From: Candidatus Moranbacteria bacterium GW2011_GWF2_35_54
GTDB taxonomy: Bacteria; Patescibacteriota; Minisyncoccia; Moranbacterales; UBA9337
DNA length: 64,000 nt
Assembly (NCBI GenBank): GCA_000990945.1
Contig: LBQR01000003.1
Coordinates: forward strand, 11,089 to 75,088
Reading direction: 5' to 3'
Shown one piece after another: positions 3,660 through 59,027 of this stretch. The position numbers and the translations under genes are program-made. The notes beneath the pieces are model-generated. The model worked only from the letters and a program-made list of their open reading frames with translations, made no database searches and was not told the origin of the DNA. Each line of letters starts with the position of its first letter. Position 1 is the first letter of the stretch.

Positions 3660-6600
3660 TTAACTTTCTTCCTCAACCGGCTCAGTTGCCGGCGCCTCCA
3701 ATTGTTCACTGACTGATTCTTCATCGGAAATAATAATAGGAGTTTCTTCGACGATTGTCTCCGACTCCGAGATAATTTCCGGGGTTATTGCAGGTGTTTC
3801 CAATGCAGTCTCTGAAGGAGTTTGACTGTTTTCTTCCTCTGCTAACCCGTTATCACTTTCCGTCGTTTTGACGTCTCTTACCGCCACCGCCGTCCAAGCA
3901 AATTTAATATCCTTGTCTTTCTCCGGATCAATTTCAATGACAAAACCTCTCGTCGATTCATCAGTTACGCGATACCAATCCAAATTGATACCAGTTCTAA
4001 GAGTAGTTGTGATAATCGGCGTAACAACATATTCTTTTTCAAATCTCACTTCAACTTTCGTTTCGCCTGATTTAATTATAGCATACCCGGCGCTGTCTTC
4101 ATCAAACATAACCTTTCCGGAAAATTCGACGTCTTTCTTGAATGACGCGAGACCCTGAAACTCCACGTCTCCCTTAAACAATACCGCGCCGCTCACGGAC
4201 AATTCTTTGAGTTTTGCCAAGCTCAACACTTCCAAATTTTTCACTTTGAAAGATGAAGACAGGTCAGCCATTTGCGAATCGAGATTTGCTATCTCATTTG
4301 TTAAATTAGCGATAGTTTCTCCAAATTTTACCAGTTGCGCATCAGCATCACTTAACTGCGTCGTCACGAATTCCAATCCTTCAATTCGGTTAGCTTTGAT
4401 CGAATCTGCCACTATTATGCCTTTGAAAACCGTTTTGCCGTCTTCGGAAGAAACAATATTTTTGGTGCGCAGATCCAACGTGGTGATTTGGTCCACATTA
4501 TCCAGAATTTGCGACTGTTGTTCTTGAATCGCTTTGACTAAATACGGAGCAAACTTGTCATAACTAATTCCATAACAATCATTGGCCGTTTCTGATCCAG
4601 GAATGCAGTTATCGGGATTTTTTGGAGTCACGACTACATCGCCAAGTCCTGCCGTTTCAACTTCTTGAGCAATAAAACCGATTTGTCGTTTTTTATCTTC
4701 TCCAGACTTCCAATAGAAAGACACAGGATTGAGGTTTAAAATCTTTTCTAATATTGAAGAATCCAAAGAAACAACATCTTTTTTCAATCTAGAATCTGAA
4801 GCTGATGTCCAAGACGTAGCACCTGGATCATTCAGATATACGCCTCCTGAACCGCCGTTTCTTAATAAAAAGTCTGTATTTGCTATGGCATACCACATTC
4901 TTCCATAATCGCTACCAGTGCCAAGTACAATTGGTTGATTATCATCCATTTTTAAACTACCGCCCCTTACTTGAAGAGCACTACCCGAAGCAATACTATT
5001 TGTGCCGATGCCGACGCGATCATTAACCGCATCTACATAGAGCGTATCACTGTCGAAATTCATATTACCTGTACCGGAATTGAAGACTAATCCAGTTGCG
5101 CCAGTTGTGTTACCAATAGTGATAGTTTTGGCCGTTGCATCAGTTCCAAGATTAATAGCGCCTGCTCCAGTGTTTAATGCAAAAGCTCCATTAGCGGTAG
5201 TAAAAGTTGACCCGCCAGTACCAGTATTAAAATTAAGGGCTGTTGCACCAGTGACATTTCCAATTGTTATAGTTTTTGCGGAAGATCCCGTACCTAAATT
5301 TATCGCCCCAGTTCCCGATGAGCCGATATTTATAGCACCACTGCCAGAACTAAGAGTAATGATTCCTGAACCGTTAGCAGTCAATGAAAGCGCGCCACTG
5401 GAGGCTGTGGTCATAGAAAGTGCCCCAAGAGAATCAATCGTGCTTCCCGAGGCAAAAGTCAAAGCATTAGTGGGGGCATCAGTCCCGATTCCTAATCTGT
5501 TACTCGCTGCGCTCCAGTATAGAGTGCCTAGATCTTCAGATACCACTCCGGAAGCACCCGCGAACAATAATGACCCTTGAGTCAAATCTGTCAAAGTCAA
5601 AGTCTTGCCAGTAGCGACGGTCGCATTGCCATTAAGTGAAATTGCGCCAGAGCCGGTGGAAAAAGTGCCGACCCCTGATTGGGCAAAATTTCCGGAAGTT
5701 TGGGCATATCCGGTGATTGCCGCAAGAGCTCCGGAACTTATAACTAATCCATTGACCGTGTTGGTTGAAGTTGGCGCAATGATTGCATTTCCAAAGGTCT
5801 GGGTTCCGCTCCAAGTGTTGGCGTTCGCCAAATTGAAAGCAAGTCCATTTACTCCAAGTGATAACGTGTTGCCATCTAAAAGTATGCCTAATGTTCCACC
5901 TTCAGTGCCGGTCAAAGTTAACCCTCCACTGCTTGTCGCGCCATTTATATAATTTCCTGTAGTATCTGCTCCTAATGCCACTGCGTCATCAGCTATTGTC
6001 AAGACTCCGGTGTTGCCCAAGGTTGCATCGCCGCTAACAATTGCGGCCACAGCTGTGTTTGTTCCGTCTCCGACAAAAATACTTCCCGAAGCAAGTGTCG
6101 TGGTCAACGCCGAAGACCAAGTTAATCCATCTGATGTGCCATTGACGACCAACATTTTTCCAGTGTTTCCCAGATAAGCCGGCACGTCCAAATCCGTTAT
6201 ACTATCCGATGAATCCAATTTTTCACTATCAAGTTCATTTATTGCATTCTGAACATTTGTGGCAACAATATTTCCCCCCGCTGTGTTAGTGATTTGACTT
6301 GCATTATAATCACCACTATTAGTAGTTACTGCACCCGTCCTTCCAAAAACTGACGCCACTGTTATTGAGTTGGTTAATTTTTCCCAAGAGGTACCATTAC
6401 ATATCGTCCAATCTCCAACAGCGTGACCGCTTCCAACAGTAGTAGCAACATAATAGTGACCTTTGATTCCAATTGCACAAGTGTCCGGAGTGGCACCAGA
6501 GGCATCCCATGTTCCCTGATAAATAAGCGATCCAGTAATTCCCGAGAGAAAATCGTTTCGGCTAATTTTACGTATACCTGAAGAAGAAGTATCATATAAA

Positions 6601-8039
6601 GCAAGATAATCGTCATTTGCAACAGCTGAAATCCCAGTAAGTCCATCTATATCCAAAGCTAAAGTTATATTAGCAGTTTCACTACCACTACCGGTAACCG
6701 TCAGTCCGCCACCGTTTGTAATTGTTGCAATGTAATTTCCAGCCGTGTCATTTCCCAAGGCTACCGCGTTAGCTGAAATGGCCAAGGCTCCGGTATTAGA
6801 CAGCGTAGCATCTCCAAACATTGTTATACCTGTAGCCACTCCCGAAGCATTGCCAATAAAAATTTTCCCATCAGCTAAGGCTGAATTTAATGTATTGATC
6901 CATTCAACACCATTTTCTGAACTGTTTACTGTTAAAGTTTTATTTGAGTTCCCACCGTAAGAAGGTATTCCTACATCCGTCAACACGGCACCAGTTTTAT
7001 TAAGTTTCGTCCACGCAATTGCCGCAGTTGTTGAAATATCAGCATTGGCAAGAGATCCGTCGGTAATTTCAGTTGAGCCAATAGCATTAACTTTTAATCC
7101 ACTTGCGCTCACCGCTAAAGTTGAACCATTTAGTAAAACGGAAAATTCATTTCCAGAAAGATTAAGACCATTGCCAGCGACATATACTGTTGTTCCCCCC
7201 ATATCATTTCCGCATTCCCAACTGCCAGAAGTCGTATTATATTTTGGAATTTGATTATCGATACAAGAATTCGACGCCCAATCAGAAAATGCGATTGTTC
7301 CGTCAGTAATTTCCGCCGAATCAATAGAGGATCCAAATATAGAACTAGCATCCGCTCCGTCTTCTCCATCTGTACCATCTTCTCCATCCTCTCCATCTTT
7401 GCCATCAGAACCAACTGATCCTTGCGAACCCTGGATACCTTGCGAACCGCGCTCACCTTGGGTACCTGCCTGCCCAGTCGCACCTTGTGCACCGCCAGAT
7501 CCAGTTATCCCAGCAGTACCAGCTTGTCCGTCTACTCCGTTAGCTCCTGACTGCCCAGCTAAACCTATCGAACCTATTATCCCTTGCTCGCCACCAATAC
7601 CCTGTGCGCCAGTTATTCCAGATTGTCCTTGCTGGCCCGCTAATCCATTTTGACCATCAACACCAACTGACCCAGCCCCTCCTGCCTGACCCTGCTGTCC
7701 ATCTGCGCCACCTTGCCCTTGCTGACCATTTTCTCCTAGAAAGTTTTTTTCCGCCACTACAACAATTTCTCCTTCTCCCCTAATAAACTCTAGGGCTCGT
7801 TTTTCTATTTCGCCATTCGCCTGCCCGTCAGAAGAAGTGTGTTGTCCAACTTCCTGACGAATACATTTATCACTCCACCAGGAACTGATAGAGCACCAAA
7901 AACTTCTTGAGAGAGATTGGTTTCCCTCTCCTGCTGCGCTAACGCCCGTTGAAGAAAGTACCAAAATTCCCAAACAGATAAAAAACATACCTACCCATTT
8001 ACCTGCGTATTTCTTTGCACTAAATATTTTGTTTTTCAT
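3660..8039 (-). CDS. Secreted fibre protein: signal peptide, collagen-like G-X-Y repeats, repetitive beta-rich fibre region, phage tail-fibre Peptidase_S74 intramolecular chaperone domain, coiled-coil/acidic tail
   Basis: N-terminal signal MKNKIFSAKKYAGKWVGMFFICLGILVLSSTGVSA. About 130 aa of GxQGxxG repeats (DNA ~7340-7735). S74 hallmark SDSRLKKD...LNPVSFYWK...IGFIAQEVE (DNA ~4480-4800). Confidence 0.8.
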   Translation of the reverse strand: MKNKIFSAKKYAGKWVGMFFICLGILVLSSTGVSAAGEGNQSLSRSFWCSISSWWSDKCIRQEVGQHTSSDGQANGEIEKRALEFIRGEGEIVVVAEKNFLGENGQQGQGGADGQQGQAGGAGSVGVDGQNGLAGQQGQSGITGAQGIGGEQGIIGSIGLAGQSGANGVDGQAGTAGITGSGGAQGATGQAGTQGERGSQGIQGSQGSVGSDGKDGEDGEDGTDGEDGADASSIFGSSIDSAEITDGTIAFSDWASNSCIDNQIPKYNTTSGSWECGNDMGGTTVYVAGNGLNLSGNEFSVLLNGSTLAVSASGLKVNAIGSTEITDGSLANADISTTAAIAWTKLNKTGAVLTDVGIPSYGGNSNKTLTVNSSENGVEWINTLNSALADGKIFIGNASGVATGITMFGDATLSNTGALAISANAVALGNDTAGNYIATITNGGGLTVTGSGSETANITLALDIDGLTGISAVANDDYLALYDTSSSGIRKISRNDFLSGITGSLIYQGTWDASGATPDTCAIGIKGHYYVATTVGSGHAVGDWTICNGTSWEKLTNSITVASVFGRTGAVTTNSGDYNASQITNTAGGNIVATNVQNAINELDSEKLDSSDSITDLDVPAYLGNTGKMLVVNGTSDGLTWSSALTTTLASGSIFVGDGTNTAVAAIVSGDATLGNTGVLTIADDAVALGADTTGNYINGATSSGGLTLTGTEGGTLGILLDGNTLSLGVNGLAFNLANANTWSGTQTFGNAIIAPTSTNTVNGLVISSGALAAITGYAQTSGNFAQSGVGTFSTGSGAISLNGNATVATGKTLTLTDLTQGSLLFAGASGVVSEDLGTLYWSAASNRLGIGTDAPTNALTFASGSTIDSLGALSMTTASSGALSLTANGSGIITLSSGSGAINIGSSGTGAINLGTGSSAKTITIGNVTGATALNFNTGTGGSTFTTANGAFALNTGAGAINLGTDATAKTITIGNTTGATGLVFNSGTGNMNFDSDTLYVDAVNDRVGIGTNSIASGSALQVRGGSLKMDDNQPIVLGTGSDYGRMWYAIANTDFLLRNGGSGGVYLNDPGATSWTSASDSRLKKDVVSLDSSILEKILNLNPVSFYWKSGEDKKRQIGFIAQEVETAGLGDVVVTPKNPDNCIPGSETANDCYGISYDKFAPYLVKAIQEQQSQILDNVDQITTLDLRTKNIVSSEDGKTVFKGIIVADSIKANRIEGLEFVTTQLSDADAQLVKFGETIANLTNEIANLDSQMADLSSSFKVKNLEVLSLAKLKELSVSGAVLFKGDVEFQGLASFKKDVEFSGKVMFDEDSAGYAIIKSGETKVEVRFEKEYVVTPIITTTLRTGINLDWYRVTDESTRGFVIEIDPEKDKDIKFAWTAVAVRDVKTTESDNGLAEEENSQTPSETALETPAITPEIISESETIVEETPIIISDEESVSEQLEAPATEPVEEES

Positions 8040-21398: not shown

Positions 21399-22007
21399 TT
21401 AATATAAATCCCATTTACTTGCGTTTTTCGAGAAACCAACTATAACCTCTAAGTTTTTTGGGATAAACTCTGGCTCGAGTAAAAATGCGGTAAGACGAAG
21501 ATGCCCTTCCAAAACGACAACAGATGAATCTTTATCACTTGCTAGAAAAATTAGGCGTGGGAACTTAACCCCATTTTTAATAGCCTCAGCAACCGATAAA
21601 AATCTTTCGTTACTTTGATTGAAAATTTCTTTGCCAGCCTGAATATTTTTTACTGCATCAATTGCTAGGCGAGAGCCATCAGTTAACTCTTTCCAATAAT
21701 CATATGCGATATATTTTGCTTGTTTTAATTCTTCAGGAGTTAAGAGGGCTATGTGCCATTGAACGTCATTGGGGAAATTTTCAAATAGTTCTTGGTTTCT
21801 GCCATAACCTCTATATTCACCGAGTAAAGTTTTGCGGAATATATTGTCATCTTTATTTTTTAAATTAGGTTCGGTTATCAGTTTATGGTCAGCGCTGTAT
21901 TTATCAAGCAGACTTTTCAAACGACTATTAAAGCGTTCCGAAGAATATTCAGCTTTCAAAAACTCGGCAATCATTTCGTTCTCACTTATTTTTCCTGTTA
22001 AATTCAT
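21399..22007 (-). CDS. Hypothetical protein (202 aa)
   Basis: ORF with no recognised domain. Confidence 0.4.
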   Translation of the reverse strand: MNLTGKISENEMIAEFLKAEYSSERFNSRLKSLLDKYSADHKLITEPNLKNKDDNIFRKTLLGEYRGYGRNQELFENFPNDVQWHIALLTPEELKQAKYIAYDYWKELTDGSRLAIDAVKNIQAGKEIFNQSNERFLSVAEAIKNGVKFPRLIFLASDKDSSVVVLEGHLRLTAFLLEPEFIPKNLEVIVGFSKNASKWDLY

Positions 22008-23417: not shown

Positions 23418-23708
23418 TTAAGTGCCCTCCTGCATATAATCACTAACAATCATTATTATTTTTTGAACATTTTTATTGCAAGATTTAAAATCGATTTTAT
23501 CTAAAATATCATTGCCATATTTTCTAATTAAATCACTAATGAGAGCATGAACAAACGATTGAGTTGCGGCATCAATGTTACTGAAATCCAACACAACCCT
23601 CTTGCCACTTTCTATGGCAGGTATGATTTCTTTGATTCTTATATCTCTAGCGATATCTTTATTTTCGGCGAAAGAGCCGACTCTTTCGAATAATTTAATA
23701 TTTTTCAT
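23418..23708 (-). CDS. STAS-like protein (DUF4325-type anti-sigma-antagonist fold)
   Basis: VVLDFSNID...QSFVHALI pattern. Overlaps upstream GHKL gene stop by 4 nt. Confidence 0.5.
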   Translation of the reverse strand: MKNIKLFERVGSFAENKDIARDIRIKEIIPAIESGKRVVLDFSNIDAATQSFVHALISDLIRKYGNDILDKIDFKSCNKNVQKIIMIVSDYMQEGT

Positions 23709-24658
23709 ACAAATTTAGGTTTTTTATATCTAGCTTTTCTTCTTTCTTTTACTGTTTTAGAATACACACCTCTAATTAAATCTAATAACTCTGAAAATTC
23801 TTTTGTTTCATCAAGAGAAATATCAACCCCCACAACTGTACCATCCCAAATCGGAAGCTTTTCTGATTTGGAATGTTTATCCCGAAATGGATCAGCAAAC
23901 AATTTATCAGAACCACTCTTTAATAATTTGTATAAAGCATCACCACTGTAAATCATAAAAAAATCATGATTCACTTTAGCTATAGTTTTAATAAAAAATA
24001 ATCCTGCTCCCGCATTATATTCCGTGCCACCTTCTTTTTTCGTCGTTCCGGTAATCCCAGGGATTAAAGCTAAACGAATAGCTTCCATATTGGTAAACGC
24101 ATTATGAGATTTATTTATAGTTTTTTTTATTCCTACTCCCGTATCCACAATTCCAATTGCGATTCTATTACTCTTTTTATAATACTGAGCAGATACAATT
24201 GCCCCATCTTTTGAACCAGAATGCTCTATAACGTTTCTAACCAATTCGCTCACCACGTATCGAATTGGATCAACTTGAGCAGGCTGAAGATGTAAAAGAG
24301 GTATAATTTCCTTAATGAAATGCGATAATTCCTCGGAATTTTTTATCTGAGTCAATGGAATAAATCGACCCGCTGATTCATGTTCTTCTACGCTTATTCC
24401 GGATTTAACACCTAAAAATTTAAATAATCCCATTCTTTGAAGATAATGAGCAGATTTTGCCGTAAGAGTTTCACAAATAATATTTTCTGGTTTTACCGGA
24501 AGACCAAGGGCAGCCACCATAGATAAAACTACTGGATGAACAGCGATCCAGCTTTCGTTTGCAGTAATTTCTAATTTTTCTTTATTGGAAAAATCAATAT
24601 TTTTTAAAAAAGGATCGATATTTCCAATAAATGCGCTATTTGGCAAATAAATATTCAT
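23705..24658 (-). CDS. GHKL-family ATPase/kinase (RsbW-like) with ~130-aa N-terminal domain of unknown function
   Basis: N-box ELVRNVIEHSG, G1 GIVDTGVGI, G2 GAGLFFIK. Confidence 0.6.
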   Translation of the reverse strand: MNIYLPNSAFIGNIDPFLKNIDFSNKEKLEITANESWIAVHPVVLSMVAALGLPVKPENIICETLTAKSAHYLQRMGLFKFLGVKSGISVEEHESAGRFIPLTQIKNSEELSHFIKEIIPLLHLQPAQVDPIRYVVSELVRNVIEHSGSKDGAIVSAQYYKKSNRIAIGIVDTGVGIKKTINKSHNAFTNMEAIRLALIPGITGTTKKEGGTEYNAGAGLFFIKTIAKVNHDFFMIYSGDALYKLLKSGSDKLFADPFRDKHSKSEKLPIWDGTVVGVDISLDETKEFSELLDLIRGVYSKTVKERRKARYKKPKFV

Positions 24659-24669
24659 ATTTTACTTAA

Positions 24670-24782
24670 TTTTACCGGGATTTGCATATTTTGTCAATTT
24701 ACCGGGATTCCCGGTAAAATAAACCACATACAAAAATTCTTAATTGTCATATATTTCACTACAAATATAAAATAGTCAGATA
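24670..24782. repeat. ~110-bp direct repeat copy 1 containing 19-bp perfect palindrome TTACCGGGATTCCCGGTAA (24699-24717)
   Basis: ~85% identical to 24952-25066. Starts 10 bp upstream of the GHKL gene start codon. Confidence 0.75.
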
Positions 24783-24951
24783 CTTTTCCATGATTCTATT
24801 TATAAATAAAATTTACTATTTTATACCTCAAATAAAGCATAATCCATAGTATGCATTGAACTATGGATAAAATGTGCAATAAAATGCCATTTTGTCCTTT
24901 ATCCATAGCTTATTTCTCTATACTTATTATACTATAGAACAATTAAACACT

Positions 24952-25066
24952 TTTACCGGGATTTGTAAAAATTGTCAAATTACCGGGAATCCCGGTAAAA
25001 TCAACAAAATGTAAAAAGTCTTGACTATTGTATATTCCACTATACAATAGTCAGAATGCACTTTTT
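24952..25066. repeat. ~110-bp direct repeat copy 2 with palindrome TTACCGGGAATCCCGGTAA (24980-24998) and perfect hairpin TGACTATTGTATA-ttccac-TATACAATAGTCA (25022-25053)
   Basis: Seen in sequence. Confidence 0.75.
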
Positions 25067-25130
25067 GTGGCTTATTTTGGGATTTTTTTTATATGACCGG
25101 AATTTTAAATTTGTCCTAAATCTAGCAAAA

Positions 25131-25823
25131 TTAACTCAAAATCACCACCAATTCCCCTTTGATTTTTTCTTTCCGGCTAAAATACTCAGTCATTTCATCG
25201 ATACTTCCGCGCACTACTTCTTCAAACATCTTAGTTAATTCTCGGCCGACGATAATATCTTTCGCGTAACCTAATTCTTTTAATAATTCTAAGTTTTTTA
25301 AAAGTCGGTGCGGGGAATCGTAATACATTACTGGATATTTAAATTCTATCGCTTCTTTAAAGAAAGTTTGGCGTCCTTTTTTGTGCGGTGGAAAACCCAA
25401 AAAAACAAATTTCTGCATATCAATTCCGGCTACACTAATTAGTGCTCCGATAGCTGAGGCTCCTGGAATCGGAACAACACTTATCTCCTCCCCGACTACC
25501 TGCTCTACCAACATATTGCCAGGATCACTTATGCCTGGAGTACCGGCATCAGTAACCAGCGCCATATTTTCACCATTTTTTAATCTTTCGATAATTTCAT
25601 CAACTTTTGCAATTTTACTATGTTGATGGTAGGACATGGCTGAAACTTTAATTTCATATCTGTCTAATAATTTTCTCGTTACCCGCGTATCCTCGCAGAG
25701 AATTAAATTCACAGTTTTAAGTGTTTCAATAGCGCGCAAAGTAATATCTCCCATGTTCCCAATGGGTGTGGCTACCACATATAAAATTCCTTTTTCTAAA
25801 TTTTCCATATTTTTAAACTGCAA
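25131..25823 (-). CDS. rsmI: 16S rRNA (cytidine1402-2'-O)-methyltransferase RsmI
   Basis: GILYVVATPIGNMGDITLRAIETLK..LILCEDTR tetrapyrrole-methylase-fold signature. Confidence 0.8.
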   Translation of the reverse strand: MQFKNMENLEKGILYVVATPIGNMGDITLRAIETLKTVNLILCEDTRVTRKLLDRYEIKVSAMSYHQHSKIAKVDEIIERLKNGENMALVTDAGTPGISDPGNMLVEQVVGEEISVVPIPGASAIGALISVAGIDMQKFVFLGFPPHKKGRQTFFKEAIEFKYPVMYYDSPHRLLKNLELLKELGYAKDIIVGRELTKMFEEVVRGSIDEMTEYFSRKEKIKGELVVILS

Positions 25824-38750: not shown

Positions 38751-38822
38751 TGGGGATTAGCCAAGCGGTAAGGCAACGGGTTTTGATCCCGTCATGCGGG
38801 GGTTCGAATCCCTCATCCCCAA
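38751..38822 (+). tRNA. tRNA-Gln (anticodon TTG)
   Basis: Cloverleaf by eye: acceptor tggggat/atcccca, D-arm gccaagcggtaaggc, anticodon loop ttTTGat. Closely resembles E. coli tRNA-Gln (UGGGGUAUCGCCAAGCGGUAAGGC...). CCA not encoded. Confidence 0.8.
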
Positions 38823-38833
38823 CAAATTAAATT

Positions 38834-58826: not shown

Positions 58827-59027
58827 TATTAATTATTTTATAACTTATGCAATTAAATTTAGCTTCATCTAATAAAAAATTCTGCTTTTAATTGCAGAAC
58901 TTGATAAAAACAACTTAAAAAAAATTGTTTCTTATCCTCGGCAGGTCTTATTTTGGATGCCTACTGTCTGCGGATTATTTAATTTACTTAACTAATATAG
59001 CGCTTATTTCCCTGCTTGTCAATAAAA

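Follow-up and report, generated by a model that had tools for sequence, protein, structure and literature searches.

What is a perfect 19-bp palindrome doing twice in the intergenic region ahead of a single kinase-like gene, and which protein would read it? The question is raised by Candidatus Moranbacteria bacterium GW2011_GWF2_35_54 (assembly GCA_000990945.1), from which we analyzed 64,000 nucleotides of contig LBQR01000003.1 (positions 11,089 to 75,088 of the forward strand), referred to as the window in the following. The region concerned, 24659-25130 of the window, is bounded by the stop codon of a TP_methylase (RsmI-like) gene and the ATG (24658) of a GHKL-ATPase gene, both on the minus strand. 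The latter gene encodes a 317-amino-acid (aa) GHKL Ser-kinase-like protein and is followed by the gene of a 96-aa DUF4325 STAS protein, for which we coined the names K and S in this analysis. We think it likely that the palindrome, together with a flanking half-site, forms a self-contained promoter/operator module of a horizontally mobile K-S cassette, that a protein travelling with the cassette acts on it as a repressor, and that the second copy in the window is a duplicated orphan.

Layout of the repeat region

The elements of the locus, given from the methylase gene towards S, are the following:

25131-25823, minus strand: TP_methylase (RsmI-like) gene, upstream neighbour of the repeat region
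25022-25034 / 25041-25053, minus strand: A/T hairpin of copy 2, TGACTATTGTATA-N6-TATACAATAGTCA, with a 13-bp perfect stem and a T-run (terminator scan, inverted-repeat search)
24980-24998: palindrome of orphan module 2 (TTACCGGGAATCCCGGTAA), a perfect 19-mer from which a sister haplotype differs at the central W only
24950-24978, minus strand: core of module 2, with TTGACA as its -35 (24973-24978), the half-site TCCCGGTAAA at 24952-24961 and TAAAAG as a weakened -10 (24950-24955) (sequence, copy alignment)
24783-24949: A/T-rich spacer of ~167 bp, non-coding and lineage-specific, with three ATCCATAG-type arms (24843-24851, 24861-24870 and 24899-24908)
24744-24782, minus strand: degenerate hairpin copy at the 5' edge of module 1, differing by a 6-nt indel and with its right arm disrupted (copy alignment)
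24699-24717: predicted distal operator palindrome of module 1 (TTACCGGGATTCCCGGTAA), a perfect 19-mer directly ahead of the K promoter's -35
24692-24697, minus strand: predicted -35 of the K promoter in module 1, TTGACA (promoter scan)
24669-24680, minus strand: proximal half-site TCCCGGTAAA fused with the predicted -10 TAAAAT, module 1 (promoter and half-site scans)
23705-24658, minus strand: K, with a SpoIIAB/RsbW-like ATP-binding domain
23418-23708, minus strand: S, a bare STAS protein (DUF4325), whose start overlaps the K stop (ATGA)

A repeat search matched 24670-24761 with 24951-25042 (92 nt ungapped, 80% identity), and gapped alignment of 24660-24790 with 24941-25075 gave 84% column identity and extended the repeats to about 115-130 nt, in agreement with the ~85%-identical direct repeats described in an earlier reading of the same DNA (the original prediction). 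Each repeat carries a perfect TTACCGGGAWTCCCGGTAA palindrome, a third half-site and an A/T hairpin. Both 19-mers are accompanied by an extra half-site, TTTACCGGGA, 27 bp to their left (24671-24680 and 24952-24961). As that reading had also described, copy 2 has a perfect A/T hairpin and the spacer carries a further hairpin, atccatagt-N9-actatggat, with arms at 24843-24851 and 24861-24869; the A/T hairpin of copy 1 is degenerate. Its judgement that the region holds no credible open reading frame (ORF) proved sound as well, a 36-aa minus-strand ORF in the spacer losing its ATG in the sister haplotype.

Across the window the 19-mer was matched at these two positions only, even with up to three mismatches allowed (0.00 expected in shuffled sequences), and its dyad symmetry lies far above chance, as it would for an operator. 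Half-sites with at most one mismatch were found nine times against an expectation of 3.1, and the same scan returned none downstream of S. On the minus strand, the promoter scan revealed TTGACA-17-TAAAAT between 24697 and 24669 with 11/12 matches. The module 1 palindrome holds the position that it has in 65 sigma-70-type K loci, the centres of half-site and palindrome are 27 bp apart (family mode 27-29 bp), and the ATG of K follows 10 nt past the predicted -10; the K mRNA of the window is predicted to have no leader or almost none. The hairpin and T-run of copy 2 are probably the intrinsic terminator of the TP_methylase (RsmI-like) gene; in the sister haplotype its stem carries a single change, with pairing kept only as G-U on the minus-strand RNA. 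As a side observation, both palindrome centres (24706-24710 and 24987-24991) read GAWTC, a subset of the CcrM/HinfI-type methylation motif GANTC, and K-linked sites almost always have A or T at this position.

Linkage of the palindrome to the K-S cassette

The original prediction had proposed a search for the palindrome elsewhere, and the motif proved not to be confined to the window. Scanning for TTACCGGGANTCCCGGTAA in one genome per species (185,579 species, 596 Gb), for which roughly 9 chance matches were expected, returned the exact 19-mer in 84 loci. The bacterial hosts include the candidate phyla radiation (CPR/Patescibacteria), Elusimicrobia, Omnitrophota, Planctomycetes, Actinobacteria and Bacteroidota, and the archaeal hosts include Woesearchaeota, Nanoarchaeota, Micrarchaeota and Aenigmarchaeota (DPANN), Methanosarcinales and Thermoplasmatales. 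In most of these loci the sequence ATGAAAATxCATxTxCCAAATAGTGC begins no more than tens of bases past the site, and in ~55 of the 84 tblastn identified a K homologue (50-87% identity), its ATG separated from the site by 2-70 bp, with a DUF4325 S homologue after it. Among the remainder, ~18 loci consist of a lone palindrome without the canonical second site, several of them within long ORFs, which fits chance matches; the other loci without K show a second site at the canonical distance, and include some that are cut by contig ends and nine orphan modules.

The linkage was also recovered in the opposite direction. Of 80 metagenome loci retrieved through K protein similarity alone, 79 had enough upstream sequence, and 73 of these contained the 19-mer with at most three mismatches inside the 160 nt upstream of the K ATG (16 exact, 24 with one mismatch). 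At least three half-sites with at most one mismatch each were present in the 130 nt upstream at 106 of 123 K-S loci (about 86%), and sites were seen only 5' of K. The K stop and S start overlap at 82 of 124 loci. Clustering of 175 flanking proteins from 48 loci yielded no family beyond near-identical strains, nor did clustering of 1055 small ORFs from 124 loci yield any such cluster. Since no other flanking gene or small ORF is conserved, the mobile unit comprises operator/promoter, K and S; the "8-gene array" of the original prediction is indeed a co-directional run, but only its first two genes accompany the palindrome. From this distribution it is close to certain that the palindrome is a cassette-linked promoter/operator, and the spread of K and S across hosts clearly points to a horizontally mobile cassette.

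Six contigs of IMG/VR carry the 19-mer, none with K or S, and were treated as chance. In one of them (L091, 3016-3034) a tRNA-like sequence ends in CCA and the exact 19-mer lies one base beyond; neither K nor S is close by, and the placement may be chance or an attachment-site context. Plasmid and phage collections contained K relatives at only ~23-29% identity, and in the literature the motif was absent from papers except for unrelated primers.

Properties of K and S

K matches the HATPase_c and HATPase_c_2 families and carries the invariant residues of the N-box (Asn), G1 (DxGxG) and G2 of the Bergerat fold, as in GHKL Ser kinases of the SpoIIAB/RsbW type; its matches are anti-sigma-kinase-like. 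Judged by these residues and matches, K is an anti-sigma-type Ser kinase. In its AlphaFold2 (AF2) model (predicted local distance difference test, pLDDT, 78) residues 1-105 form an N-terminal alpha/beta domain, modelled with confidence, which is accompanied by the Bergerat fold, a C-terminal helix (286-309) and a conserved basic tail. The isolated termini of K gave no Pfam match, and the S STAS profile showed no similarity to the N-terminal domain of K.

S belongs to Pfam DUF4325 (E = 5e-15), and Candidatus Moranbacteria GW2011_GWE1_35_17 encodes a protein with 100% identity to it. AF2 modelled S (pLDDT 95) as a STAS fold and nothing more, the top structural matches being RsbS and SLC26 STAS domains; the final helix of the fold closes the protein at residue 95, and no extra C-terminal region is seen. 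The residues T49-Q50-S51 are invariant and lie at the N-terminus of helix 50-64; the phospho-acceptor serine of SpoIIAA-type proteins occupies the equivalent position. A weak match to Escherichia VapS (PDB 9z7o, E = 0.11) spans the phospho-acceptor region.

Three loci deviate in their sites. In the metagenome locus L136, four of four half-sites upstream of K read CGAGGA/TCCTCG and not CCGGGA/TCCCGG, a concerted change within one locus. The sites of L163 and L141 are limited to a wide pair, CACCAGGA-N27-TCCTGGTA, and in both loci S carries K75A at an otherwise invariant lysine. Comparison of these operator variants with protein residues left K75A, common to L163 and L141, as the only shared change, with too few cases to go further. 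PADLOC assigned both K and S to only the N-terminal part of one DrmA profile (PDLC02567, 1750 positions, DISARM). Two proteins, P0243 (409 aa) and P0245 (456 aa), have K-like and DUF4325 modules fused in a single chain; such modules also match the N-terminus of the DrmA profile, which suggests that the K-S pair has been reused as a sensor module within larger defence proteins.

Register with bacterial and archaeal core promoters

The loci, oriented on the gene, follow three layouts. The window and its closest relatives belong to bacterial type A, palindrome-(a/c)TTGACA-N12-aTCCCGGTAaaAT-ATG, while bacterial type B reads palindrome-TTGACA-ttt-palindrome and ends in ...GGTAAAAT-N6-ATG. The archaeal layout is palindrome-N10-TTTATAAATA-N10-TTCCCGGTAa-N2-4-ATG. 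Altogether, 65 loci were classified as sigma-70-like and 37 as TATA-like, and the palindrome is followed by TTGAC in most bacterial loci. The full palindrome lies just upstream of the -35 in Bacteria and just upstream of the TATA box in Archaea, with a second full or half site over the -10 and over the predicted transcription start, respectively. An operator would behave in this way, keeping its place on predicted core promoter elements from one orthologous locus to the next. The K start codon is located at the predicted transcription start or no more than a few nucleotides from it.

The -10 of the sigma-70-like loci is merged with the proximal GGTA and most often reads TAAAAT (24/65) or TATAAT (17/65), and the distance from the end of GGTA to the ATG peaks at 10 nt (29/65), which leaves 6 nt between -10 and ATG, so that the mRNA should be leaderless. 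Among the TATA-like loci, 20 of 37 contain the proximal half-site, which ends 2-7 nt, mostly 2-4 nt, before the ATG. In every genome-derived locus inspected the promoter type agreed with the assignment of that genome to Bacteria or Archaea, which speaks against a binning artefact. The centres of neighbouring sites are 27-29 bp apart in 78 of 90 bacterial intervals, and either 27-29 bp or 38-39 bp apart in Archaea. As these spacings differ by ~10 bp, the helical phase is retained, which is evidence for a protein assembly bridging the sites.

The second copy and other orphan modules

Several groundwater assemblies of the Rifle type contain the same locus. Both modules and the spacer are present in a sister haplotype (K 98% and intergenic region 92% identical), and relatives at no more than 87% identity have a single module. 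No half-site of either module differs between the haplotypes, and within the palindromes the central W alone is exchanged. Of the ~13 positions that separate the copy 2 sites, 5 have diverged, and the copy 2 -35 of the sister haplotype reads TTGAAA, next to a conserved half-site. Both window copies contain the methylase hairpin region, which elsewhere is not part of the cassette DNA, and the duplication thus appears to have arisen in place: the terminator hairpin of the upstream gene and the whole module would have been duplicated in situ, leaving an orphan module 281 bp upstream. With its predicted binding sites intact and its -10 weakened to TAAAAG, copy 2 is most likely an orphan operator module that serves as an auxiliary operator or a weak tandem promoter. 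The spacer was also considered as a repeat or miniature inverted-repeat transposable element and rejected, there being no other copy in the window or in ~190 fetched loci and matches only in near-identical strains.

Orphan two-site modules away from K-S were found in nine other genomes (L006, L012, L049, L055, L065, L073, L077, L079 and L081). The genes that they precede encode a PD-(D/E)XK nuclease, MNT-like nucleotidyltransferases (one with an N-terminal winged helix-turn-helix, wHTH), an IS200-like Y1 transposase and a D-Ala-D-Ala dipeptidase. Such modules could be trans-regulated targets or captured promoters.

Weighing the alternative explanations

In ~130 loci the sites are conserved, lie on the core promoter and keep their phase, which strongly supports the operator reading of the original prediction. 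That prediction looked for the regulator elsewhere in the genome; the evidence instead ties the site to the adjacent K-S cassette in both prokaryotic domains. A host-encoded helix-turn-helix (HTH) transcription factor, with K-S as one member of its regulon, would account for the orphan modules before unrelated genes and for K and S having no recognisable DNA-binding domain, and yet we regard it as very unlikely because of this linkage. The same 19-mer accompanies the cassette in CPR, Planctomycetes, Elusimicrobia, Actinobacteria, DPANN, Methanosarcinales and Thermoplasmatales, with the core promoter swapped between sigma-70 and TATA types and without a conserved neighbouring gene, and we know of no sequence-specific regulator common to these bacterial and archaeal hosts. 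About equally improbable is that the palindromes are mobility signals, such as a recombination site or the hairpin end of an HUH/Y1 transposase, with copy 2 as an insertion scar. The cassette does move horizontally, perfect palindromes can form single-stranded hairpins, the window has two copies, and one of the orphan modules (L081) lies 91 nt upstream of the IS200-like Y1 transposase gene. Against this stand sites that occur only 5' of K, with none downstream of S in the window, a fixed and helically phased register with -35/-10 or TATA and ATG, and the lack of any transposase or recombinase conserved beside the cassette; the methylase terminator shared by the window copies, which is non-cassette DNA, indicates local duplication. 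The remnant attachment site once considered for the region fares no better, as the spacer is unique and no flanking site pair was found.

A small-RNA or small-protein locus under a duplicated promoter, formed by copy 2 and the spacer, has a slightly lower probability still. Copy 2 keeps the -35 and a -10-like hexamer, the 36-aa spacer ORF is hydrophobic, and the spacer folds better than shuffled sequences (z = -3.35), but the opposite strand folds equally strongly (z = -3.62), which points to inverted repeats in the DNA and not to a strand-specific RNA. Searching the region against Rfam at E <= 1 gave noise matches only; both spacer hairpins have uncompensated mismatches in the sister haplotype, where the ORF also lacks its ATG, and the promoter of copy 2 is reduced to a TAAAAG -10 in the window and a TTGAAA -35 in the sister haplotype. 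The small-RNA locus raised in the original prediction is therefore not upheld. The same applies to its suggestion of a replication origin or DnaA-regulated site, which we consider extremely improbable. Of the "two or three" 8/9 matches to the DnaA box reported for the A/T-rich spacer, two were found within 46 bp (24862-24870, minus strand, and 24899-24907, plus strand) and no third; they are the arms of one inverted repeat, and one is lost in the sister haplotype. With 33 one-mismatch boxes and no perfect one in the window, such matches are common, and each of the sixteen 4-kb bins has a negative GC skew, without a switch. Neither several consensus boxes nor a skew switch nor dnaA/dnaN nearby, as an origin would have, was found in the window.

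Several observations count against the explanation that we prefer. Foremost, no HTH, wHTH or ribbon-helix-helix was found in K or S by Pfam, NCBIfam or in the AF2 models. In two distant K-S pairs (~26-34% identity) no equivalent operator could be clearly made out, and a small HTH gene lies upstream of each. In the first, on the Alicyclobacillus plasmid pAACI02 (L185, 79-1748), a AACCGATCGGTT palindrome abuts TTGACA and the upstream gene is a sigma-like HTH gene; in the second, from Frackibacter (L187, 942-2749), there is no clear palindrome and the upstream gene is of the HTH_17 type. The promoters, transcription starts and leaderless status are all consensus-based predictions, and the ATG of the window follows 10 nt after the -10 as opposed to 6 nt at the family mode. 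Finally, the conservation of copy 2 is that of two haplotypes only, and at ~8% background divergence the chance of 29 unchanged positions is ~0.09. Distant K-S pairs of this kind, with a small HTH gene ahead of them, occur in cultured bacteria or prophages, among them Fhv_0046/0047 of a Francisella prophage (PMC7924643).

Proposed mechanism and significance

For the cassette-borne module that we prefer, a symmetric oligomeric protein encoded by the cassette itself (S, K or a K-S complex) would occupy the phased sites and repress K-S transcription. By analogy with CapK/CapS, K might phosphorylate S on the invariant T49/S51 and thereby release the repression. The autorepression, the binding of cassette proteins to the operator and the relief through S phosphorylation are further steps that we infer.

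More tentatively, it is possible that a GHKL-kinase/STAS pair without a classical DNA-binding domain itself reads the 19-bp operator, for instance as a K2S2 partner-switching repressor that contacts the DNA via the basic C-terminal helix of K or via a STAS surface. The cassette would then be a host-independent unit that is placed behind sigma-70 as well as TATA/transcription factor B (TFB) promoters with leaderless mRNAs, and moves between Bacteria and Archaea, especially CPR/DPANN symbionts, as a DNA-damage-sensing or addiction module, the orphan modules being trans-controlled targets or decoys. Whatever the role, an anonymous intergenic repeat becomes a testable regulatory element with an unusually clean comparative signature, in which one operator stands in fixed helical phase behind the core promoters of Bacteria and Archaea alike. 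Should the cassette proteins prove to bind this operator, they would represent a new mode of sequence-specific DNA recognition and a portable repression module for both prokaryotic domains.

Other features of the window

Searching the whole window against Rfam at gathering thresholds gave two families only:

38751-38823, plus strand: tRNA-Gln(TTG) (Rfam)
58864-58991, minus strand: ribosomal protein L10 leader, RF00557 (50.5 bits)

As the GC skew is negative throughout, the window seems to lie within a single replichore. One-mismatch matches to TTATCCACA number 33, compared with 19 in the shuffled expectation, and 28 of the 33 are on the plus strand. Positions 4001-8000 have a GC content of 0.44 compared with ~0.35 elsewhere in the window, and contain no Rfam family. 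Downstream of S follow genes for a major facilitator superfamily (MFS) transporter and for HD, APH, HAD and HD_3 proteins, all outside the cassette unit. Among the HD, APH-type phosphotransferase, HAD and HD_3 (YfbR-like) genes, in what looks like a nucleotide-metabolism or salvage cluster, lies a gene (21399-22007, minus strand) for a 202-aa protein without a Pfam or NCBIfam match and with a weak PADLOC assignment to PD-Lambda-5_A (E = 0.0035).

Comparison with known systems

The closest described system is CapK/CapS. CapK (HTH-STAS-GHKL) is switched on by single-stranded DNA and phosphorylates CapS (STAS-wHTH) at a conserved serine (Chambers et al., EMBO J 2026, PMC13373217). CapS represses via palindromes with 1-bp and 10-bp half-site spacing, and the phosphorylated dimer leaves the TTAA palindromes in its own and downstream promoters (PMC13373217). 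K-S shares with it the order of genes, an anti-sigma-type GHKL kinase directly followed by a STAS protein, which in CapKS is the kinase substrate. In both, STAS helix 2 begins with a conserved Ser/Thr (T49/S51 in S). Also shared are palindromic operators on the promoter, including the "narrow" 1-bp-spaced palindrome of CapS and a second site over the -10, where autoregulation has been shown for CapKS and is predicted here. The differences are equally clear. CapK has an N-terminal HTH and K has none, and CapS binds TTAA half-sites through a C-terminal wHTH, whereas S has no wHTH and its half-site is TTACCGGGA; the K-S operator as a whole differs from that of CapKS and is much longer. CapKS precedes CBASS, Bub or Thoeris operons, while the genes downstream of K-S differ in every lineage, and CapKS has been described only in Bacteria, whereas the K-S cassette is also found in Archaea with TATA promoters.

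VapK (STAS-GHKL) and VapS (STAS with a C-terminal helix) control the VapC toxin in a similar manner (PMC13373217). VapK, like K, is described as lacking an HTH; S and VapS are members of one Pfam family, DUF4325, and 9z7o is the only near-significant solved relative of S. Yet no VapC/PIN gene was present at any of the 124 K-S loci, the next gene in the window encoding the MFS transporter; no counterpart of the C-terminal antitoxin helix region of VapS is seen in S, and no operator has been described for vapKSC. In the literature DUF4325 appeared in three papers with incidental mentions, and a PIN.4 group has been noted as "transcriptionally coupled to DUF4325" (PMC5499597).

From the SpoIIAB-SpoIIAA and RsbW-RsbV pairs, K-S differs in having no sigma factor partner, none being possible in Archaea, in the extra 105-aa N-terminal domain and basic C-terminal tail of K, and in a conserved operator of its own. 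Type II toxin-antitoxin modules resemble it as small overlapping two-gene units with promiscuous horizontal spread and palindromes over the promoter, but neither K nor S has a canonical antitoxin DNA-binding fold. Judged by gene order, domain content and operator, the K-S cassette is a third, minimal form beside CapK/CapS and VapK/VapS, which extends this family to a two-gene unit, to Archaea and to the poorly understood CPR and DPANN lineages.

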